Shown: positions 1 to 39,988 of the stretch, piece after piece
Layout of the letters: each line of letters starts with the position of its first letter
Position numbering within the stretch: position 1 is the stretch's first letter
Source of the DNA: Eubacteriales bacterium
Lineage (GTDB): Bacteria > Bacillota > Clostridia > Oscillospirales > CAG-272
Length of the DNA: 64,000 nucleotides
Direction of reading: 5' to 3'
Assembly: GCA_045594785.1 (NCBI GenBank)
Contig: JAZNZE010000004.1
Span: forward strand, 39,254 to 103,253
Program-made: the position numbers and the translations under genes
The notes under the pieces: model-generated
The model's database searches: none
What the model was told of the DNA's origin: nothing
Seen by the model: the letters and a program-made list of their open reading frames with translations, nothing else

Positions 1-1415
1 GTAATATAACCTCAATTTCGGTAAACGGTGTGGAACAATACAGATATGTGTATGATAACGTAGGTCAACTCTTGAGAGAGGACAATGTTCCTAAGAATAA
101 AACCTATGTACATACATATGATAATGCAGGCAATCTAAAATCAAGGAAAACGTATCCACTTACAGCAGCTGATGTGATACCGAGTGGTAATTACGTTTCG
201 GTTAGCCGTGCATATTCCACAAGCGCATGGGGTGATCTTCTCACTTCGTACGGCGGAGTTGCAATAACCTATGATGAAATAGGAAATCCTCTTAGCTACC
301 TAGGAAAAACGTTTACCTGGGAAGGCAGGCGTCTTGTTAGTGCTGTAAGCAGCAGCAAAACTATAACCTTCGAGTATAACGATGAAGGTATACGCACAAG
401 TAAAACCGTAAACGGAGTAACGACAAATTATTATCTTAACGGTTCTCAGATAATGGCTGAAGAAACTAACGGTAATATTACGGTTTATCTGTATAATAAT
501 ACAGGCATAATCGGTTTCCAATACCGCGCTTCAACCTATGCGGCTGACGTTTGGGATACTTATTTCTACGAAAAGAATCTGCAGGGTGACATAATAGCTG
601 TATACACATCCGATGGAGCAAAGAAGCTCTCTTATACCTATGATGCCTGGGGTAATTTCACTGTGACCTACCTCAACGGAGCAAACCTAGTCACGATGAA
701 AACTTTGTTTGCTTACAGAGGTTATTACTACGATAGTGACTTAGGTTTCTACTATCTTAATTCAAGGTATTATGACAGTAATACCGGTAGGTTCGTGAAT
801 GCAGATAACCAACTTTCAACAGGTAGTGATTTGACAGGAATAAATTTGTTTGCTTACTGTGGCAACAATCCTGTTAATCGTATAGATCCAGATGGACATG
901 CGTGGAAAGATATTAAAAATTGGTTCTCAAACACCTGGAATAATGTTAAGAAAACTGCTAAACAAATTGTAAAAACTGTTAAGAAAAAAGCTTATACAAC
1001 TTACTACAATGCAACTAAGTGGCATTTCGAGGATAGAGAAAAGAAAAATGGAACACCTCCGACTTATTCAGAAGTGAATGATAGGAATTCTGGCTGGAAT
1101 CTCTTGCCTGAAAGCCAATCGATATATCACGATAATGGAGTTGGTAAATCAGAACTTAAGTATATAACTGATGATGGACGAGAAGCTGTATTTGATGGCG
1201 ATACACTAGAACCAGTTACAGATCCGAGATATATTGCTACCTATAACTATTGCCCACTATACCAAATGCCATCTACTGGTGCTGGGGTTTTAGACTATGT
1301 CAAATTGGCTGGCTCGGGAGTCGGACATTTCTTTGCGGATATGGTGCCGTACTATCTAACCGGAAATAGTAATACGAGAGAGCAGTTTGAATCGAAAGTC
1401 TTTTTCTTTGATTAG
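1..1415 (+). CDS. RHS/YD-repeat polymorphic toxin, 3' portion (5' end lies off-window) with a variable C-terminal toxin tail
   Basis: The frame is open from the left edge (codons in phase with nt 3). YD/RHS repeats (YTYDAWGN, YRGYYYDSDLGFYYLNSRYYDSNTGRF) end in the core-end motif NLFAYCGNNPVNRIDPDGH (about nt 840-899). The last ~170 aa (900-1415) share nothing with the tails of the downstream cassettes. The ORF track lists only the ATG-started part 30..1415. Confidence 0.85.
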   Translation, partial: NITSISVNGVEQYRYVYDNVGQLLREDNVPKNKTYVHTYDNAGNLKSRKTYPLTAADVIPSGNYVSVSRAYSTSAWGDLLTSYGGVAITYDEIGNPLSYLGKTFTWEGRRLVSAVSSSKTITFEYNDEGIRTSKTVNGVTTNYYLNGSQIMAEETNGNITVYLYNNTGIIGFQYRASTYAADVWDTYFYEKNLQGDIIAVYTSDGAKKLSYTYDAWGNFTVTYLNGANLVTMKTLFAYRGYYYDSDLGFYYLNSRYYDSNTGRFVNADNQLSTGSDLTGINLFAYCGNNPVNRIDPDGHAWKDIKNWFSNTWNNVKKTAKQIVKTVKKKAYTTYYNATKWHFEDREKKNGTPPTYSEVNDRNSGWNLLPESQSIYHDNGVGKSELKYITDDGREAVFDGDTLEPVTDPRYIATYNYCPLYQMPSTGAGVLDYVKLAGSGVGHFFADMVPYYLTGNSNTREQFESKVFFFD

Positions 1416-1426
1416 GAGGGATCTGA

Positions 1427-1966
1427 ATGAAAAAAGAATTAAGGAGCGTAATGATTATTATGTTATCCATAGGTATGATTTTAGGTTTATGCTCATGTCG
1501 CATGAAGGAGAGCTACAAGGAGTTTAATATTAAAAACATAACCGGTAGTGTGAATGATAATTATTTTACTTCAGAAGATTTTTCTTTTGCAAGAATTCAG
1601 AATATTGTGATTATACCCGAAGTCAAGGCTATAAACCACGAAGAATATATTATATACATATCCGCATATTCAAAGAGCGGAAAAGAAATTGTTCAAATTA
1701 AAAATGTAATTTTCAAAGAAAAAGAGTGTGTTTTGTTAAACAACGAGTTGGGGAACAAGATTGAATTTAAACAGAATGCTAACTCTATATACGAGGGATG
1801 GATTGATGGAGGAACCTTTACAGAAGAAACTTTGAAGGTGGCAGATGGTAAAAAGTATGACATTATAATTGAAGTTGATGTTTTTGATAATGGTTTAAAC
1901 ATATCAAAAAACTTAACGTTTGAAATGGACATAAAAGGATATAAATCATTTGTTTGGCCAACGTAA
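1427..1966 (+). CDS. putative cognate immunity protein (predicted lipoprotein)
   Basis: It starts 11 nt after the toxin stop, with GGAGGG 6 nt upstream of the ATG. The N-terminus MKKELRSVMIIMLSIGMILGLCSC looks like a signal peptide with a lipobox-like LCSC. It is a small A+T-rich gene in the canonical immunity position. No family recognised. Confidence 0.55.
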   Translation: MKKELRSVMIIMLSIGMILGLCSCRMKESYKEFNIKNITGSVNDNYFTSEDFSFARIQNIVIIPEVKAINHEEYIIYISAYSKSGKEIVQIKNVIFKEKECVLLNNELGNKIEFKQNANSIYEGWIDGGTFTEETLKVADGKKYDIIIEVDVFDNGLNISKNLTFEMDIKGYKSFVWPT

Positions 1967-2065
1967 GAAAAAGGGGTCAAAAAAAGAAATGCATTTGTGG
2001 CAACATGATTTGAATATGTATTATAAGAGCAAATATGGCGTATTGCCGCCTCTGAACAAACGTGG

Positions 2066-2485
2066 ATGGTGATTATAATGAACCTTCATATTAATTCCCC
2101 ATCATATTACAGTCAAATTCACGGAATTGATGACGAGATATATAAAATGTGTCGATTATTAGAAAAAAATGTCGATATAAAAAAATATACATCTCTGTTA
2201 GATACCGTGGGAATAACACCGATTGTTGCTCCGAATTTTGAAATAGGCTGTGCTAACTATGCAGAAGTAAAATATATCAGTTTGCCTTATCGAATGGCAA
2301 GCATATCGCTGCATATTGACTACTTGGAGTATGTTTCTGTGAATATTGAAGAAAAAAAGGCGCTGATTATCAAAAATATTTTAAATTCGTTGTTAGTAAT
2401 AAAAAAACGGTTAAAAAATGGTTTTGACTATGTACGGATTGAAAATGATATTTTAACATTAGTGAAAGCCCCGAATGATAGATGA
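2066..2485 (+). CDS. hypothetical cytoplasmic protein, possible orphan or second immunity protein
   Basis: Intact 139-aa ORF with no signal peptide or TM segment, A+T-rich, lying between immunity candidate 1 and the next rhs cassette. An alternative start is ATG 2078. Function not recognisable from sequence. Confidence 0.4.
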   Translation: MVIIMNLHINSPSYYSQIHGIDDEIYKMCRLLEKNVDIKKYTSLLDTVGITPIVAPNFEIGCANYAEVKYISLPYRMASISLHIDYLEYVSVNIEEKKALIIKNILNSLLVIKKRLKNGFDYVRIENDILTLVKAPNDR

Positions 2486-2624
2486 ATGCAAAAAATGAAA
2501 CGAACTAAAAGCGGTTATGTATAGCATTTATAGAATATGAAAACGATGATTTTTACCACGATTTCTCATCTCAGATATTCTATAATGATAATTATACTAT
2601 ACTTATACATACTCTTATTCAACT

Positions 2625-3215
2625 TCCGGTTGGGGTGATCTGCTAACATCATATAACGGTCGTGAAATTACTTACGACGAGATAGGAAACCCTCTTAGCT
2701 ATTATAACGGTGCTTCGTATACATTCTCTTGGACGGGTAAAGAACTGACGGGGCTTGTAAAGAGTGGAAACACATACTCCTTTACTTACAATGATGCCGG
2801 AATACGTACTACAAAAACCAAGAACGGAGTAACAACAACCTACTATCTCAGCGGTTCTCAGATAATGGCAGAGGAAAGATGCGGTGAAATTACGGTTTAT
2901 CTGTATAATAATACAGGCATAATCGGTTTTCAATACCGCGATTCAACCTATGCAGCGGACGTTTGGGATACATACTTTTACGAAAAGAACTTGCAGGGTG
3001 ACGTTGTCGGTATATACGATGCAAACGGAACAAAGCTTGCTTATTATACCTATGATGCGTGGGGCAATTTCACTACTGCATACTACAGCGGAGCACCGTA
3101 TCCTGTATTTAGTAATCCCTTCACATACAGAGGCTATTATTATGATAGAGACCTAGGGCTTTATTATCTGAATTCCAGGTATTATGACAGCATGACCTGT
3201 AGATTCGTGAATGCG
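2625..3215 (+). repeat. more diverged direct repeat of the rhs core segment (aligns to about nt 220-805)
   Basis: The conserved blocks WGDLL...YDEIGNPLSY and IMAEE..ITVYLYNNTGIIGFQYR...YYLNSRYYDS are shared at nucleotide level. There is a 3-codon length difference upstream of the ATG at 2865. Confidence 0.8.
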
Positions 3216-3869
3216 GATACGTTTGATGTAATAACCGCAACACCCGGTGCTCTTACCGATAAGAATCTCTATGCCTACTGCGATAATAATCCCATTATGC
3301 GTACAGATGAAGACGGTGAATTTTGGTTAGGTCTTGCGATTGGTGCTGTGGTTGGTGCGGTAGGAGGTATTGTTGGTCAAGTTATAAGCGATATGGTTAC
3401 TAGCGCATTAAATTTTGAAGTAACAATTAGCAATTGGCAAACATATGTTGGTGCTGCCGTTGGCGGTGCTGCTGGTGGAGTAGTTATTGCTGCTACAGCT
3501 AATATAAGTGCCGCTAATGCGGTTGTAGGTGCCGTTACAACAGCTGTAGGGCAATCGTTAGAAAAATTAACAATTAGTGATTACGATAAATCCTGGATGG
3601 AGATAGGTTCAAATGCCGTTGTAGATGGTACAGTTAGTTATGGTCTAGGAAAAATACCCGGAATTAAGGGAGCGACTGCAGGAAGAAACAGCTGGTCTGC
3701 AGTGTACAAATCCGGACTAACCAAGTTAAGACACGGAACTGCTGCCAAAATGAGTGCCAAAGTGGTTACTAAGGGAGTTGGATCAAATGTTGTTGGTGGT
3801 TTTGCGCTCGATGGATATTATGGTCTAAAACAATATGCTTACGATAAATTAAAAAATCCATTAGCATAG
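2865..3869 (+). CDS. orphan RHS C-terminal cassette with a Gly-zipper, membrane-toxin-like tail (RHS-homologous frame is open from 2592 without a start codon)
   Basis: It has the same RHS core as feature 1 (TVYLYNNTGIIGFQYR, YYLNSRYYDS), ending NLYAYCDNNPIMRTDEDGEFW (~nt 3320). The frame is open and RHS-like from 2592 (YSTSGWGDLLTSYNGREITYDEIGNPLSY), but there is no ATG/GTG/TTG before 2865 and no RBS. The tail 3321-3869 is Gly/Ala-rich with repeated GxxxG (GLAIGAVVGAVGGIVG, GAAVGGAAGGVV). Confidence 0.7.
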   Translation: MAEERCGEITVYLYNNTGIIGFQYRDSTYAADVWDTYFYEKNLQGDVVGIYDANGTKLAYYTYDAWGNFTTAYYSGAPYPVFSNPFTYRGYYYDRDLGLYYLNSRYYDSMTCRFVNADTFDVITATPGALTDKNLYAYCDNNPIMRTDEDGEFWLGLAIGAVVGAVGGIVGQVISDMVTSALNFEVTISNWQTYVGAAVGGAAGGVVIAATANISAANAVVGAVTTAVGQSLEKLTISDYDKSWMEIGSNAVVDGTVSYGLGKIPGIKGATAGRNSWSAVYKSGLTKLRHGTAAKMSAKVVTKGVGSNVVGGFALDGYYGLKQYAYDKLKNPLA

Positions 3870-3879
3870 GAGTTAGGAA

Positions 3880-4419
3880 GTGAACAAAATTAAGAAGCTC
3901 TTTGAAGTCCAAACCAAGTTGACATCTTATACCTACCCAATAGTAAAGATAATAATATGTATAGCTATTATTATTTTCACTTATATTCGAAATCTAATCT
4001 TTCGTTTTTCAATCCCATGGGCTAATATAGTACTTACAGTGCTATGTGCTCAATTAATGATTTTCAGTATTCTTTGGTTGTATATTTCTATTGGCGAATT
4101 GTTCCATACATTTGAGAATCGTAGACGTATAAATAAAAATTATCAATTCGTAAATGTAAAACAATTGACAACAGAAGCTATAACTAAAATAGTGTCCGAA
4201 AATGATATTGTTGAGATTGAAGTGTATGACGGTAATAAAATTATCCAAATAGGAGCAAGTTCAGACTGTAAATATTCAAGTTGTATATTTACAGATAAAT
4301 TGTTTTATATATCAGATTCGGATTATGAAACAATAGAAATATTTACAGAAGCGTTAATTGCTTTGTTCCCTACAGGAAGTGTACCTGTTTATAAAATTGA
4401 TGGTTTACCTTTAACTTAA
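3880..4419 (+). CDS. putative immunity protein for cassette 2 (integral membrane)
   Basis: GTG start 10 nt after the cassette-2 stop, with AGGA-type purine run upstream. Hydrophobic helices (IVKIIICIAIIIFTYI, ANIVLTVLCAQLMIFSILWLYISI) are followed by a soluble C-terminal part. Very A+T-rich. Confidence 0.55.
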   Translation: MNKIKKLFEVQTKLTSYTYPIVKIIICIAIIIFTYIRNLIFRFSIPWANIVLTVLCAQLMIFSILWLYISIGELFHTFENRRRINKNYQFVNVKQLTTEAITKIVSENDIVEIEVYDGNKIIQIGASSDCKYSSCIFTDKLFYISDSDYETIEIFTEALIALFPTGSVPVYKIDGLPLT

Positions 4420-5451
4420 TATATATTATTTGTTCTCGATACCGACTATACCTTTACCGAAACAAGCACGCAAACCTCATCACAGGTAAAAACCTATAAG
4501 ACAACGGTAAACGGAACCGCGACAACCTACACGTACACCTACGATTCCAGAGGTAATATAACCTCAATTTCAGTAAACGGCGCGCAGCAGTATAGGTACG
4601 TATATGATAACCTCAGCCAGCTAATAAGAGAAGATAATATACCTAAAAATAAAACTTATGTTTACAAATATGACAATTCAGGTAATATATTATCAAAGAA
4701 AACCTATTCGTTAACTGCGGCAGGCGTAACGCCTACAGGCTCATATACCGAGAATAGCTACACCTATTCTACAGGCGCATGGGGAGACCTTCTTATCTCG
4801 TATAACGGCGCAAGTATTACCTACGATGCGATAGGAAATCCGCGTAACTACCGAGGCAAAACGTTCACTTGGGAAGGAAGACGTCTTGTAAGTGCAATAA
4901 ACGGAAGTAACACTCTGACCTTCAAGTATAACGATGAAGGTATACGCACAAGCAAAACTGTAAACGGTATAACCACGAACTATTACTTAAACGGTTCTCA
5001 GATAATGGCAGAGGAAAGATGCGGTGATATTACGGTTTATCTGTATAATAATACAGGCATAATCGGTTTTCAATACCGCGCTTCAACCTATGCAGCGGAC
5101 GTTTGGGATACTTACTTTTACGAAAAGAATCTGCAGGGTGACATAATAGCTGTATACACAGCCGATGGAGTAAAGAAGCTCTCTTATACCTATGATGCCT
5201 GGGGTAATTTCACTGTGACCTACCTCAACGGAGCAAACTTAGTCACGATGAAAACTTTGTTTGCTTACAGAGGTTATTACTACGATAGTGACTTAGGTTT
5301 GTACTATCTTAATTCAAGGTATTATGACAGTAATACCGGCAGATTCATTTCAGCGGATGACATTGGTATCATTTGTTCTATACCGAATGCATTAACCGAT
5401 AAAAATCTATACAAAGTTTTTATTATGTCATCACAAATCATAGCGAAATAA
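4420..5451 (+). pseudogene. truncated orphan RHS fragment (no start, no toxin tail, no immunity gene)
   Basis: The frame opens at 4420 directly after a TAA, and RHS homology begins at ~4438. Nt 4553-5352 are colinear with nt 1-800. There is no start codon until 5005. After ALTDKNLY the frame leaves the core-end motif (no YCxNNP/DPxG) and stops 12 codons later. Confidence 0.65.
4553..5352 (+). repeat. near-identical direct repeat of rhs core segment nt 1-800 (constant offset 4552, no indels seen)
   Basis: By-eye alignment: for example 453-800 versus 5005-5352 differ only at scattered positions. Identity drops abruptly after the codons for SNTGRF. Confidence 0.9.
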
Positions 5452-5504
5452 AAAAGCTCACTTTCGATAAATGAGCTAAAGCATTTGATATTATTACTGA
5501 GAAA

Positions 5505-5542
5505 GCAGCTCAAACCTTGCGTTTGAGCTGCCTTCGTTTTTT
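5505..5542. terminator. bidirectional stem-loop terminator between convergent units
   Basis: An 11-bp perfect stem gcagctcaaac / gtttgagctgc with loop cttgc. A T-run (tttttt) lies a few nt downstream on + and TTTCTC follows on -. It sits between the rhs relic (+) and the 5550..7151 gene (-). Confidence 0.65.
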
Positions 5543-5549
5543 ATTCGTT

Positions 5550-7151
5550 TTAATCTTTGTTTTTGCGATGCGTAGAAATTTTTATATAGTCGTTCGTAAG
5601 CAGCGTATCTATGCCCATATCGAAAAGCGCGTCTGCCTCTTCGGTAGTGTCAGCGTAGAAATAGTTGCATCTTATGCCGTGCGCATGCGCCTTGTCAATC
5701 ATTTCCTTAGTGTAGAACTGTAGGTAAAGCTGAACCTTTTCACAACCGTATTCTATAGCTCTGTCTACTATATCCCACGGTCTTTCGGAAAGATGTCCCA
5801 CGCAAATGGGGATATCGGGAGCGTATGCTTTCCATTGCTTTATCTGCATATCGCTTTCAAGCATAAAGTAGCAATGCCCCTCTGCGTTATAGCGCCTTAC
5901 CGTATCCACGATTTTTTTCATAATATGCTCGGGATAGTCCTCGGAATAGGAAAGCGGCTTGACGTGAATGTTCATAATGACGTGAGAGGAAAATTTTTCA
6001 AGAATTTCTTCAAATTTTACAACCGAAAGCCCTGCAAAGCTTTCGTCAAATTTGATTCCGAAGTCGAGCTTTTCAAGCTCCGCTAAGGTTTTGTCGGTTA
6101 TAAGTCCTTCACCCGTGCTCACTCTTTCGAGATTTCTGTCGTGAGAAGAGACTATTTCTCCGTCAAGAGTAGGCCAGAGGTCGAATTCTATTTCTTCAGC
6201 TCCGAGGGCAACCGCCGCACCGTATCCCGCCATAGAGTTTTCGGGCAGGGAATGCATTCCTCTGTGAGCGCAGAGCCTAGGATATCCGAGCTCCTTTTCA
6301 CCGGGAATCACCGAGCTTCCCGCAGGTCGATATTGCCAAGGCTTTCTTCCGTATTCTATATATTCGTAATGCGCCTTTTCGGGATTTCCGAAGCCTGCAG
6401 GCTTATAGTGCTTATCCTTCGGGTCAAACTCGGCAGTTTCCATACCGAATCTTCCGCGCATATTGACGAGGGTTTTTCCGTAAGGCGAAACCACCATGCT
6501 CGCGCCGCAAACGGTAGCTTTTTCGTCAAAGCTTACCGAAGAGCGAAGCACGTACGCATTCGTGTTATACGCAAGCATTTTGCACATCGTTTCGATAGCC
6601 TCGTGACTGTCGCTGCGCTGAAGCGAGCAGCCGATAATTATATCCACGTTCTGCTTTGCTATATTCGCAAAAGCCTCGTAGAAATAGAAATCGTAGCAGG
6701 TGAGAAATCCGTATCTCAGTCCGTCAAGCTCCAGAACGTACGGTTCGGAAAATTCCATAGTGTAGTCGGAGTCGAGGGCAAGCGTTTCTTTTTCAAGAGG
6801 CGGAAGATGCTTTTTGAAGTATTTTCCTACCGTTTCTCCGTTTTTATCGATTGCGTAGGTTGTGTTTCTGTAATTTCCGTTAACCTCGTAAAGAGCGTTG
6901 ACGAATACGGCAGCGCCGCATCTCTTTGCCGTCTCTGCACATTTTGAAAGCAGTGTTTTTATGTATTTTTTGTGGTAAAAGAGGGTTTCCTCTCTGTCCT
7001 TTGTGGCACAGGGAACGTCACTGTACTCCGGCAAAACTATTATATCAACCGAGCTGTCACATTTATCGAGCAGCTTAATTTTGTACTCAAAATATTCGTC
7101 ACAAAAAGCCGTATCCATTGAATATGGCGGCTGAATTATACAGGCTTTCAT
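5550..7151 (-). CDS. fusion protein: N-terminal carbon-nitrogen hydrolase (nitrilase superfamily) + C-terminal glycerophosphodiester phosphodiesterase (GDPD) domain
   Basis: The N-terminal half shows nitrilase-type Glu-Lys-Cys context (IIVLPEYSD, GKYFKKHLPP, YGFLTCYDFYF). The C-terminal half shows the GDPD signature (LCAHRGMHSLPENSMAGY..EEIEFDLWPTLDGEIVSSHDRNLERV). Confidence 0.75.
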   Translation of the reverse strand: MKACIIQPPYSMDTAFCDEYFEYKIKLLDKCDSSVDIIVLPEYSDVPCATKDREETLFYHKKYIKTLLSKCAETAKRCGAAVFVNALYEVNGNYRNTTYAIDKNGETVGKYFKKHLPPLEKETLALDSDYTMEFSEPYVLELDGLRYGFLTCYDFYFYEAFANIAKQNVDIIIGCSLQRSDSHEAIETMCKMLAYNTNAYVLRSSVSFDEKATVCGASMVVSPYGKTLVNMRGRFGMETAEFDPKDKHYKPAGFGNPEKAHYEYIEYGRKPWQYRPAGSSVIPGEKELGYPRLCAHRGMHSLPENSMAGYGAAVALGAEEIEFDLWPTLDGEIVSSHDRNLERVSTGEGLITDKTLAELEKLDFGIKFDESFAGLSVVKFEEILEKFSSHVIMNIHVKPLSYSEDYPEHIMKKIVDTVRRYNAEGHCYFMLESDMQIKQWKAYAPDIPICVGHLSERPWDIVDRAIEYGCEKVQLYLQFYTKEMIDKAHAHGIRCNYFYADTTEEADALFDMGIDTLLTNDYIKISTHRKNKD

Positions 7152-16605: not shown

Positions 16606-17526
16606 TCAGCCCTCTGCCGCAACGAGCATGGCAAGCCAGTCGTTTTCGGTTTCTTCCTTAATTATTTTGTATCCGTATTTCTTTACGGCTTCTCTTATCT
16701 CCTCGGCTCTGGGGCTTATAATTCCCGAGAGAATTATTTTTGCATCCGGCTTTACGTAGTCGGAGAGGTCGGGAAGCATACGCAGAATTATATCCGCAAC
16801 TATGTTGGCAAGGCAAACGTCATATCTGCCGCCCGAAAGGTCAACGCCTTTAAGAAGGTCGGACACCCCAACGGTGATATTGTCGCAGCCGCCGTCTCTT
16901 GCGTTTTCTCTTGCAACCTTAACGGCAACGGGGTCGATGTCGTAGGCATTGCAGCTTTTCGCTCCGAGCTTTGCCGCGCAAATCGAAAGTATGCCCGAGC
17001 CCGTTCCCATATCGAGTATTCTTTTATCCGCAAGGTCCTCGTCCTGCATAAGACGGATAACCAGCCTTGTCGTTTCGTGCGTTCCCGTGCCGAAAGCCAT
17101 ACCCGGATCCATTCTTATGATTACCTCGTCTTTATCGGGGGTATAATCCTCCCAGGCGGGAACTATGGTGATTTTGCCGAGCTTTACCGGCTTGTAATAC
17201 TGCTTCCAGCTCTCAGCCCAGTCCTCCTCGCACATTCCCTCCGCGGTTATCTCAGCGTCTATTCCGAGAGAAAGAAATCTCTCGGCAATAAAGGCTCTGC
17301 ATTCGGGAAGGCTTCTTTCCTCGGGAACGAAAACCGATACCTTCACCGTATCCTTATCTGCGTTGAGTATGCTGTCGTCTACAAGCTCGCCGTACATTCC
17401 GTTAAGCGAAAAATCGCTGTAATCCTCTATCATAAGTCCGTTGTCTATCATACTCATAACCGAGCTTATAGTGTCAAGGTCTGCGGTTTTTCCCGCGGCC
17501 GTAAGCTTAGTCCAATTTCCTGCCAT
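16606..17526 (-). CDS. prmA: ribosomal protein L11 methyltransferase PrmA
   Basis: 306 aa with the SAM-binding motif ILDMGTGSGILSI and the conserved IRMDPGMAFGTGTHETT block. prmA-rsmE pairing. Confidence 0.9.
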   Translation of the reverse strand: MAGNWTKLTAAGKTADLDTISSVMSMIDNGLMIEDYSDFSLNGMYGELVDDSILNADKDTVKVSVFVPEERSLPECRAFIAERFLSLGIDAEITAEGMCEEDWAESWKQYYKPVKLGKITIVPAWEDYTPDKDEVIIRMDPGMAFGTGTHETTRLVIRLMQDEDLADKRILDMGTGSGILSICAAKLGAKSCNAYDIDPVAVKVARENARDGGCDNITVGVSDLLKGVDLSGGRYDVCLANIVADIILRMLPDLSDYVKPDAKIILSGIISPRAEEIREAVKKYGYKIIKEETENDWLAMLVAAEG

Positions 17527-17531
17527 AATGA

Positions 17532-18446
17532 TTACTCCTCATTGCCTAAAGCTGTGTTTATGTCAATATTTATTTGCATTTTTAGCTGTTCTACGCTATC
17601 AAACTTCTTTTCGGGACGGATAAAATCGAGAAAACTTACGGAAATTTTCTCTCCGTAAAGGTCACCCTCGTATCCGATTATATAGGTCTCGATATGCTTT
17701 TCTCTGTCAGAAACGGTTGGGCAGCTTCCAACGTTCGTGATAGCCTTATAGCTTAGCCCCGCTGCCTCGGCTCTGCATTTATAAACTCCCGAGGGAAGAG
17801 AAACTGCGTTTTTTTCCATCTCGATATTTACCGTAGGAAAGCCAAAACCCCTGCCAAGTCCGAGTCCGCGTTTTACGGTGCTTTTTACGAAATAGGGCGC
17901 ACCGAGAAGCTCTGCCGCCCTCTTTACGCTTCCGCTTCTCAGCAGCTCCTTTACTCTCGTGGAGGATATCTTTTCTCCGTCTATTTCCACGTCCTCCGGG
18001 CAGATAAGCTCAGCCCCCAGAGCCCCAAGCGAGCAGGCAAGCATTTCGGTGTTTCCGAGCGCCCCTTTTCCAAATCTGAAATCCTTGCCCGAAAGCGCAA
18101 CCGAAGCGCCCAGCCCCTCTATAAGCGTTTTTCTGATAAAGTCCTCTGCCGAAAGAGACCTTACCGCGTTGAAATCCGAAATGATTACCTCGTCTATTCC
18201 GCATTCGGATATAAGCGAAAGCTTTTCCTTCGTTGAATATATTCTTTCCTCGCCCTTAATGCCATCGCTTTCGGAATAGAAGGTAAAGACGGCAGAGGGA
18301 AGAGAACGCTTTTTTGCTTCGCAAACCGCTCTTTTCAGTATCTCTCTGTGTCCAAGGTGAACACCGTCAAAAAAGCCGAGAGCAACAACTCTTTTTCCGG
18401 CAAAGCATTTGCCCGGCTCGTATTCGCGTATAAGAATTGCTCTCAC
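17532..18446 (-). CDS. ribF: bifunctional riboflavin kinase / FMN adenylyltransferase
   Basis: N-terminal VALGFFDGVHLGH nucleotidyltransferase motif and a C-terminal riboflavin kinase domain (GFPTVN, ...ETYIIGYEGDLYG). GTG start. Confidence 0.9.
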   Translation of the reverse strand: MRAILIREYEPGKCFAGKRVVALGFFDGVHLGHREILKRAVCEAKKRSLPSAVFTFYSESDGIKGEERIYSTKEKLSLISECGIDEVIISDFNAVRSLSAEDFIRKTLIEGLGASVALSGKDFRFGKGALGNTEMLACSLGALGAELICPEDVEIDGEKISSTRVKELLRSGSVKRAAELLGAPYFVKSTVKRGLGLGRGFGFPTVNIEMEKNAVSLPSGVYKCRAEAAGLSYKAITNVGSCPTVSDREKHIETYIIGYEGDLYGEKISVSFLDFIRPEKKFDSVEQLKMQINIDINTALGNEE

Positions 18447-39049: not shown

Positions 39050-39988
39050 ATGGGAATTTTTTTAGCGGCTCTTATTGCGGTGGCAATTCTGCTTCTGACC
39101 GCAGCTCCCGGATATATTCTCATTAAAGCCAAGGCTATTTCGCGTGAGAGTATTCCTGCGTTTTCAAAGGTTTTGCTTTTCGTTTGCCAGTCCTCGCTGG
39201 TTATATATACCTTTTCCGTGACACCCTATTCGGCTGATATGCTGAAAAATCTCGGGCTATTTATGCTCGGAACTGTCGCAATTCACGCGGTGATGCTTAT
39301 CGGAGCTTGCCTTATACTTTATAAGAAATTCGACAACGTTACCGCCAGAATATCAACGATAGCGACCACCTTTGCAAACAGTGCCTTTTTCGGAATTCCG
39401 ATAATTGAGGCGGTTATGGGAGACGGAGCGTCAGAGCTTATAATTTATACTACGGTTTACGCTATGGTAATGAATCTTCTCGGCTGGACGGCAGGCTCTG
39501 CGATAATATCAAAAAGCCGAAAGTATATTTCGTTAAAGAAGCTTTTCGTTAACCCTTATATGATAAGCGTAATAATTTCCCTGCCGTTATTTCTTTTCTC
39601 GCTGAGCCTTCCCGCACAGCTTGAAAATATGATAACGATACTCGGAAAAATGACCACGCCTCTTTCTATGCTTATTATAGGAATGCGTCTTGCAACCTCT
39701 GAATTAAAGAGCGTTTTCGGAGACCTTAAAATATATGCCGCCGCGCTCGTAAAGCTTGTGGTAATGCCGCTTCTGGCATTTTGCATTATATATTTCTTTC
39801 CGCTTCCGCCTGAGGCAAAAAAGACCTTTTATATAATTTGTGCCTGCCCTACGGCATCAATAGTTCTCAACTTTTCCGAGATTATCGGAGAGGGGCAAAA
39901 GGAAGCGGTTGCATCGGTTCTTCTTTCTACCGTGCTTAGTATAGGAACACTTCCGCTTATGATGCTTCTTTTGCCTCTTCTTGCGTAA
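39050..39988 (+). CDS. AEC (auxin efflux carrier) family transporter
   Basis: Start ATG 39050 (MGIFLAALIAV). About 10 TM helices and an AEC-type two-repeat layout. Confidence 0.75.
   Translation: MGIFLAALIAVAILLLTAAPGYILIKAKAISRESIPAFSKVLLFVCQSSLVIYTFSVTPYSADMLKNLGLFMLGTVAIHAVMLIGACLILYKKFDNVTARISTIATTFANSAFFGIPIIEAVMGDGASELIIYTTVYAMVMNLLGWTAGSAIISKSRKYISLKKLFVNPYMISVIISLPLFLFSLSLPAQLENMITILGKMTTPLSMLIIGMRLATSELKSVFGDLKIYAAALVKLVVMPLLAFCIIYFFPLPPEAKKTFYIICACPTASIVLNFSEIIGEGQKEAVASVLLSTVLSIGTLPLMMLLLPLLA

Follow-up and report, generated by a model that had tools for sequence, protein, structure and literature searches.

A probable WapA-type RHS toxin gene followed by apparently replaced tails and candidate immunity genes in an uncultured Clostridia bacterium

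We analysed a 64,000-nucleotide (nt) stretch of DNA (the window) from a Eubacteriales bacterium of the Clostridia, corresponding to positions 39,254 to 103,253 of contig JAZNZE010000004.1 in assembly GCA_045594785.1 (G000:C4:39254-103253 in our coordinates; negative positions lie upstream of the window). The genome is a metagenome-assembled genome (MAG) of 71 contigs and 2.34 Mb, 95.5% complete and with 43.5% GC, and the locus lies within a 118-kb contig. The window opens within a gene of the rearrangement hotspot (RHS) family, which is followed on the same strand by core-end fragments, toxin tails and candidate immunity genes (Table 1).

Table 1. Features of the RHS locus in window coordinates
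Feature	Position	Strand	Evidence
Full-length RHS/WapA-type gene	-5067..1415 (G000:C4:34186-40668; L007 8187-14669)	+	6483-nt open reading frame (ORF), 2160 amino acids (aa)
3' end of the full-length RHS/WapA-type gene	1..1415	+	ORF, domain matches, PDB matches to RHS structures
Core-end repeat, copy A	1..807, reaching -119 off the window	+	repeat search, blastn, MAFFT
Cassette 1: linker, toxin tail 1 and immunity gene	785..1974	+	nt identity to L026, L027 and L009
imm1, 179 aa, lipoprotein-like, candidate tail 1 immunity gene	1427..1966	+	follows tail 1 elsewhere; AGGAGG ribosome-binding site (RBS)
AAGG junction, 4-nt overlap of cassette 1 3' flank and older toxin interior	1971..1974	+	register comparison
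Tail 0 remnant: last 34 codons and stop of an older toxin	1971..2072	+	similarity to the L113 toxin end
Imm44-family immunity gene of the putatively lost tail 0, intact, 135 aa	2078..2485	+	homologues; gene order in L113/L114
Orphan 2: start-less core-end fragment and complete tail 2	2592..3869 (homology 2631-3219; tail ~3312-3869)	+	TIGR03696, alignment
imm2, 179 aa, two membrane-spanning segments, candidate tail 2 immunity gene	3880..4419	+	GTG start, GGAG upstream
Orphan 3: start-less core-end fragment, orphan-2-type linker to 5412, then broken	4420..5451 (homology 4433-5346)	+	TIGR03696, alignment
Terminator-like hairpin for the convergent gene 5550-7151	5455..5477	-	terminator scan
Intrinsic-terminator-like hairpin closing the array	5505..5541 (hairpin 5505-5531 and T run)	+	terminator scan

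The protein encoded by the full-length (main) gene begins with MENYTKNQFRGKLTTK, in which a 19-residue hydrophobic core followed by VYA/ET forms, by inspection, a Sec-type signal peptide; a Kyte-Doolittle hydrophobic segment covers residues 11-40. Pfam and NCBIfam scans placed a DNRLRE domain at residues 321-466, YD/RHS repeats (TIGR01643 and PF05593) and a complete Rhs_assc_core (TIGR03696) at residues 1903-1989 (model positions 1-76 of 76; 64.7 bits against a cut-off of 32.5). A phmmer search of the PDB matched residues 1682-1993 to the solved Rhs cores 7q97, 8qjd and 8qjb. In the N-terminal 1000 aa, the scans returned only DNRLRE and a weak disaggregatase-repeat match. They detected no cell-wall-binding module (CWB2, LysM repeats) and no LXG, WXG100, PAAR or VgrG trafficking domain in this protein, and neither LXG nor WXG100 had a match across the 95.5%-complete genome. 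Because a signal peptide is present and the genome has no LXG or WXG100 match, the protein is predicted to be exported by Sec, as in WapA. The initial annotation of this DNA, made from the window alone, had taken 1-1415 to be the end of a large RHS protein and had left its export route undetermined. Leftward extension, set beforehand as the test of the first point, yielded the 2160-aa RHS protein and, with it, the signal peptide.

Cassette 1, at the end of the main gene, was 96.7% identical at the nucleotide level to positions 15529-16718 of L026, an ENA metagenome scaffold, and nothing 5' of 785 aligned to that scaffold at this level. In 30-nt steps, identity to L026 rose from 13/30 through 25/30 to 29/30 at 785. 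The two RHS proteins have cores that are 38% identical in amino acid sequence and become near-identical from GRF(V/I)NADN to the end, with 95% identity over tail 1. The left breakpoint falls in a block of ~30 nt encoding ...YYDxxxGRF, ~30 codons 5' of the PxxxxDPxG autoproteolysis motif, which occurs here as PVNRIDPDGH (870-899) within the swapped part. The same module was found in L027 (82%) and, truncated at its 5' end, in L009 (91.6%), and tail 1 forms the C-terminus of six other large RHS proteins. We therefore read cassette 1 as one imported unit acquired onto the main gene.

Tail 1 matched nothing in Pfam, NCBIfam or PDB sequence searches and belongs to no described family; its AlphaFold2 model was poor (predicted local distance difference test, pLDDT, 59; 7 sequences). 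Since imm1 also follows tail 1 in L026 (98% aa identity), L009 (94%) and L027 (70%), it is a conserved partner of this tail. The imm1 product, which has no Pfam family, carries a signal segment (hydrophobic at 4-27) and a GLCSC lipobox, and this lipoprotein-like character suggests that the target of tail 1 lies outside the cytoplasm. In L026, the first unit after the shared cassette (17034-18053) is a 339-aa RHS orphan with a tail that matches a GIY-YIG nuclease (E 9e-5); L026 and the present locus have the same expressed tail and very different downstream stores.

Beyond imm1 lies what is left of an older tail, here called tail 0. Positions 1968-2072 encode ...KGSKKEMHLWQHDLNMYYKSKYGVLPPLNKRGW and a stop, and this remnant is 77% identical over 35 aligned positions (34 residues and the stop; E 7e-16) to the C-terminus of a 444-aa orphan RHS C-terminal (RHS-CT) toxin in L113, to which no Pfam family could be assigned. 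The next ORF, 2078-2485, had 62 homologues, all 62 with a precomputed match to PF15571 (Imm44); a direct scan of the ORF itself for Imm44 gave an E value of 0.003, below the curated cut-off. In L113 and L114, a 70%-identical Imm44 homologue stands 5 nt after the 444-aa toxin, and the gap in the window is equal. The stretch 1971-2494 was 94.5% identical at the nucleotide level to L111 and L112.

The boundary between cassette 1 and this older unit could be placed to the base. Homology of cassette 1 to L026 and L009 stops at 1974, and homology to L111 begins at 1971, so that the two overlap by the four nucleotides AAGG; beyond 1974, L026 and L009 continue with common sequence that is absent from the window. 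This junction would be expected if the incoming cassette 1 replaced the former tail and an illegitimate event at a 4-nt microhomology sealed its right end. As such, the putative scar of one tail replacement is unusually clear, being resolved to the base pair. A defined, integron-like right cassette end was also considered and was rejected, as L026 and L009 share sequence past 1974 and the end is thus specific to the present locus. The initial annotation had described one expressed tail and two orphan cassettes; these three units were recovered, and the fourth, consisting of the 1971-2072 remnant and the Imm44 gene at 2078-2485, had been missed.

Orphan 2 is the only downstream unit with a complete toxin tail. 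Its core fragment is complete up to the motif PIMRTDEDGE. The tail 2 family comprised 402 cluster representatives at E <= 1e-3, including full-length RHS proteins in which it directly follows the core (e.g. P0011, P0043, P0060, P0079 and P0086); it was also found on many orphan-sized proteins. No Pfam, NCBIfam or PDB (phmmer) match was obtained for tail 2, which belongs to no described family, and a profile search of the PDB matched via the core end only. The AlphaFold2 model (pLDDT 84.8) was all-helical, and the sequence is rich in glycine zippers, with 15.7% glycine, nine GxxxG motifs and two hydrophobic segments. A Foldseek search of the PDB gave a best match with an E value of 0.25 and a template modelling (TM) score below 0.3, and its weak matches were all membrane proteins. 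By analogy, membrane depolarisation is the most likely activity of tail 2. In L030, a 46%-identical homologue of imm2 follows a 73%-identical tail 2.

Orphan 3, in comparison, has neither a toxin nor an immunity gene. After its GRF codons it continues with an orphan-2-type linker (...ALTDKNLY) and then breaks off: homology to orphan 2 stops at 5411 and homology to L111 at 5412. The 40 nt that follow the break (5412-5451) had no match elsewhere in the genome or in the fetched loci.

Three collinear copies of the RHS core end in direct orientation had been described at this locus, and this was supported by three lines of evidence. First, blastn of 1-1415 against the whole genome recovered copies on the same contig at 4553-5346 (E 3e-239) and 2787-3219 (E 1.6e-87). 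Second, a repeat search returned repeat families spaced by 2412 and 2140 nt. Third, TIGR03696 matched exactly three sites in the 2.34-Mb genome, all collinear at this locus; the model is complete in the main gene and covered over positions 1-75 of 76 in orphan 2 and 1-53 of 76 in orphan 3. Several further points of the initial annotation also held. The frame of cassette 2 is open from 2592 and leads into a different tail, and that of cassette 3, open from 4420, is truncated, with the partial core and the break noted above. The locus is A+T-rich, the cassettes having 31-39% GC against 43.5% in the genome and 45% in the convergent gene, and a plus-strand hairpin with a T run (5505-5531) marks its end. 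Neither orphan has a start codon or RBS where its homology begins: orphan 2 reaches its first in-frame ATG, GTG or TTG codon at 2865 and orphan 3 at 5005, and no in-frame start of either is accompanied by a Shine-Dalgarno (SD)-like motif. The small genes, for their part, have recognisable RBSs, namely AGGAGG before imm1 (1427), GGAG before imm2 (GTG at 3880) and GGTGA before the Imm44 gene (2078). After the main gene, the first plus-strand terminator-like site in the scan to have a good T tail was the one at 5505. The first 195 codons of orphan 3 (4420-5004) include no in-frame ATG, GTG or TTG, while the homologous stretch of the main gene has four; the chance of this is ~0.007 at the main gene's codon usage. 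This dearth might reflect selection against internal initiation, or chance.

The copies proved less alike than previously stated. Orphan 3 (4433-5346) aligned with the main gene (-119..794) over 914 nt at 84.4% identity, with exact runs of 67, 61, 43, 42 and 38 nt. Orphan 2 (2631-3219) aligned with 228-807 over ~590 nt at 71-77%, with a longest exact run of 41 nt. In keeping with the earlier description, MAFFT placed no indels in the 914-nt orphan 3 alignment; the near-identity claimed for 4553-5352 against 1-800 came to 83% over the stretch. All copies diverge at ~790-807, after the YYDSNTGRF codons and ~30 codons before the PxxxxDPxG motif, rather than at ~900 as had been proposed.

Identity between the main gene and orphan 3 was mosaic. 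To the left of main coordinate 475 it was 77.4%, and to the right, over the last 320 nt, 96.6%; in a max-chi-square test, none of 1000 permutations reached the observed value. A second patch, 97-98% identical, was shared by orphans 2 and 3 at main coordinates 451-570, compared with ~60-70% elsewhere. In the 96.6% segment, 8 synonymous and 3 non-synonymous codon differences were counted among 106 codons, and in the segment upstream of it, 52 synonymous and 41 non-synonymous among 158. Because differences of both kinds, synonymous and non-synonymous alike, are few in the 96.6% segment, the pattern argues for gene conversion over constraint on the protein alone.

Comparable arrangements were found in other genomes. 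A main gene is accompanied by three more core-end fragments in L026 and by one such fragment in L027 and in L115, and L030 and L113 carry several fragments each. In a genome of the same genus (G007:C5; L028, 1-20000, minus strand), small ORFs follow each of eight core-end fragments, and within 20 kb of this array there is no RHS gene of full length. Orphan arrays thus appear, from these sequences, to be common in uncultured gut Clostridia.

We consider it highly probable that the locus is a Sec-exported WapA-type RHS antibacterial toxin gene whose tail has been serially replaced by imported cassettes, leaving behind an immunity store and a spare toxin. The anatomy, the sharing of cassettes, the scar, the mosaicism and the conserved linkage of toxin and immunity genes were observed directly. 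In the proposed history, cassettes of linker, toxin and immunity gene would have arrived by horizontal transfer and supplanted the C-terminal tail several times, the old end being shunted downstream or partly deleted on each occasion. Shunted ends would have become orphans 2 and 3, each with a start-less piece of core, and a partly deleted end would have become the tail 0 remnant at 1971-2072, which kept its Imm44 immunity gene. The latest event would have brought cassette 1 (785-1974) onto the main gene, with the left crossover in the last conserved core block (the ...YYDSNTGRF codons) and an illegitimate right junction at the 4-nt AAGG overlap inside the old toxin. Gene-conversion patches may later have homogenised parts of the three core-end copies. 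At present, the main gene would make the tail 1 toxin, and the immunity genes would protect against the tail-1, tail-0 and tail-2 toxins of neighbours. These immunity genes are probably co-transcribed, since each has an RBS and no terminator precedes 5505. Orphan 2 would be a silent, complete spare toxin that rare homologous recombination could move onto the main gene, and orphan 3 a dead stump.

Among the downstream units, a distinct tail together with its immunity gene occurs in orphan 2 only, and the 1971-2485 unit is a stump and an immunity gene with no core fragment. We favour the view that the array documents past replacements and stores immunity genes, rather than being a ready switch, because the only loaded orphan (orphan 2) is poorly homologous to the main gene and the well-matched orphan 3 is empty. 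As orphan 3 lacks a toxin, recombination with it would disarm the main gene. The initial annotation had emphasised that a new tail and its immunity gene could be swapped onto the main rhs gene by homologous recombination. The imported cassette, the scar with the tail 0 remnant, and the mosaicism lend good support to its historical part; the ready-switch part is weak, given the poor homology of orphan 2 and the emptiness of orphan 3.

Several points weigh against the history proposed here. For every part of the locus, we infer toxicity, immunity, co-transcription, targets and present-day switching from sequence, and the order of the replacement events from one genome. Divergence of the orphan core fragments from the main gene far exceeds that in the enterobacterial arrays on which the model rests (PMC2935791), and part of the mosaic identity could stem from uneven purifying selection. 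Furthermore, the searches revealed no second strain of the species, and hence no replacement was caught in action: a search of the genome collection for a same-species strain returned three distant loci only, the 40 relatives searched gave short core-end matches only, the JGI metagenomes gave one match, 35% identical, and the cluster of the main protein has a single member.

The strongest alternative is that the array is an active switch, in which RecA-mediated recombination between the main gene and the orphans regularly deploys a new tail with its immunity gene, as selected in Salmonella. The direct repeats are rightly oriented for this, the mosaic identity gives evidence of past exchange among the copies, and orphan 2 offers a complete toxin/immunity pair. 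However, the Salmonella precedent had 522 bp at 95% identity (PMC3967940), whereas orphan 2, the sole loaded orphan, is 71-77% identical with no exact run above 41 nt. The crossover favoured by sequence match is with orphan 3 (runs of 67, 61 and 43 nt), and it would remove both cassette 1 and cassette 2, leaving the gene disarmed. A simple crossover would also delete imm1, which would be lethal among siblings unless the locus had first been duplicated (PMC3967940). Regular switching is therefore, in our view, somewhat unlikely.

A second alternative is that the orphans are independently expressed, orphan 2 from an internal promoter and an internal, perhaps non-canonical start, and together with imm2 as an intracellular toxin-antitoxin-like module. 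Such expression has a precedent in a Salmonella rhs-CT orphan with internal promoters and a CTG start (PMC7043789). Promoter-like hexamers numbered 37 here compared with 22 in shuffled sequences, including plus-strand sites at 2563-2592, 2765-2792 and 2884-2912, but such matches are expected in A+T-rich DNA and are no evidence of function. Similarly, an in-frame ATG (MAEE...) is kept in all three copies, but it is merely part of the conserved core sequence, and an SD-like motif was found at none of the 11 in-frame ATG, GTG or TTG codons of orphan 2, whereas the immunity genes have one. A glycine-zipper membrane toxin inside the cell would, moreover, demand imm2 constantly, and we regard this alternative as very improbable. 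An assembly artefact, in which variants of a single RHS 3' end from different strains were joined head to tail by the metagenome assembler, is scarcely credible: the genome is a 71-contig MAG and RHS ends are known to vary among strains, but the copies differ by 16-29% and have different tails and immunity genes, their junctions are unique sequence within the 118-kb contig, the same architecture occurs in the independent assemblies L026, L027, L030, L113, L115 and L028, and the AAGG junction unites two sequences that are each found separately elsewhere.

Returning to serial replacement by imported cassettes, cassette 1 raises a broader possibility. Since it is shared by RHS genes without detectable nucleotide similarity between their cores, cassette exchange might be independent of extended core homology, and short-homology or illegitimate recombination might move tails between RHS clades and between genera. 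That such exchange is the general mode in gut Clostridia is speculative and, on present evidence, improbable. If true, it would contrast with the clade-limited, high-identity displacement proposed for Enterobacteria, and stores of immunity genes would form a community-wide record of toxin traffic.

Several features of the surroundings were also recorded. Directly 5' of the RHS gene, the region at window -7084..-5139 (L007 6170-8115) encodes a 136-aa secreted protein without a known family and, divergently, an extracytoplasmic function (ECF) sigma factor and a DUF4367 anti-sigma-like protein. A sigma/DUF4367/small-ORF trio likewise precedes the RHS gene of L026, and these genes could serve such WapA-type toxins as dedicated regulators and accessories. 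SecF-like and SrtB genes of the S. suis type were not found upstream of the main gene. A tiny RHS relic lies on another contig (G000:C17:8438-8522; L021 ~1479-1563, minus strand), next to a tyrosine-recombinase-like ORF near the contig end. It encodes ...YTELENISEIWYTVNGTGFYDRHF and joins two separated pieces of the main gene (residues ~1495-1516 and ~1590) at 98-100% nucleotide identity. Rfam and tRNA scans of the 20-kb locus gave no match.

At the other end, two terminator-like hairpins stand back to back at 5455-5541, between the array and the convergent gene. The latter (5550-7151, minus strand) encodes a fusion of a carbon-nitrogen hydrolase with GDPD, which is not unique: relatives occurred in at least 586 stretches of the genome collection. 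The 80 loci kept had nearly full-length matches at 60-76% identity and came almost all from Clostridia gut MAGs; the nearest named relatives of a flanking gene were uncultured Clostridia/Oscillospiraceae gut MAGs. Because none of the 80 loci carrying an orthologue of the convergent gene had an RHS gene within 10 kb, the insertion site cannot be dated by synteny.

The locus is of a well-known, ordinary kind and changes no concept. What it adds is an extension of the orphan-array and tail-displacement picture from enterobacterial rhs genes linked to type VI secretion (T6SS) to probable Sec-exported WapA-type toxins of uncultured gut Clostridia. It also provides an example, resolved to the base pair, of one apparent tail replacement, evidence of cross-clade cassette exchange between RHS genes (cassette 1 and L026), and two putative toxin families absent from curated libraries, each with a conserved partner (a lipoprotein-like protein and a membrane protein, respectively).

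The closest platform is WapA of B. subtilis and S. suis. According to published accounts (Koskiniemi 2013, summarised in PMC3967940; PMC12704120), WapA shares with the main protein a length above 2000 aa, an N-terminal Sec signal, a shell of YD/RHS repeats, an Rhs-associated core, a C-terminal toxin that is polymorphic and, immediately 3', an immunity gene. A DNRLRE domain is common to the main protein and S. suis WapA-CT1 (PMC12704120). Unlike in WapA, no cell-wall-binding or LysM repeats were detected in the main protein, and unlike in S. suis, the upstream place of the SecF-like and SrtB genes is taken by a small secreted protein together with a divergent pair of ECF sigma factor and DUF4367 protein. 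The orphans in the published accounts consulted (PMC12704120, PMC3967940) belong to enterobacterial rhs loci and not to wapA. Tail 2 resembles the membrane-depolarising glycine-zipper toxins Tse5, a P. aeruginosa Rhs effector, and TspA, of the S. aureus type VII secretion system (T7SS), in being helical and rich in GxxxG; its pairing with the two-pass membrane protein imm2 recalls that of TspA with the membrane immunity protein TsaI, a pattern known from toxins of this kind (PMC9484751). This likeness is one of composition only, no sequence or fold similarity having been detected. Contact-dependent growth inhibition (CDI) loci differ in platform, since CdiA relies on two-partner secretion and a VENN motif and neither CdiA nor CdiB is present here. 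Their CdiA-CT/CdiI orphan modules are nevertheless similar, being silent toxin/immunity modules 3' of an expressed gene with short upstream homology (PMC3150448).

The C-terminal displacement and orphan-module model was developed for rhs loci (Jackson et al. 2009, PMC2935791; Poole et al. 2011, PMC3150448), and orphan deployment by homologous recombination was shown in Salmonella (Koskiniemi et al. 2014, PMC3967940). Compared with enterobacterial rhs, the present host belongs to the Gram-positive-type Clostridia, the predicted export is by Sec and not T6SS, and there is no PAAR/VgrG context. Identity between the orphan core fragments and the main gene is 71-84% rather than ~95-100%, and the swapped unit starts ~30 codons before the PxxxxDPxG motif, not at the motif. 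Moreover, one replacement here appears to have deleted most of the old toxin, leaving a 34-codon stump at a 4-nt microhomology. The overall plan is nonetheless that of the enterobacterial arrays: a full-length gene is followed by start-less core ends in direct orientation with different tails and immunity genes, the tails are decoupled from the cores and seemingly imported laterally, and the cassettes are A+T-richer than the core.

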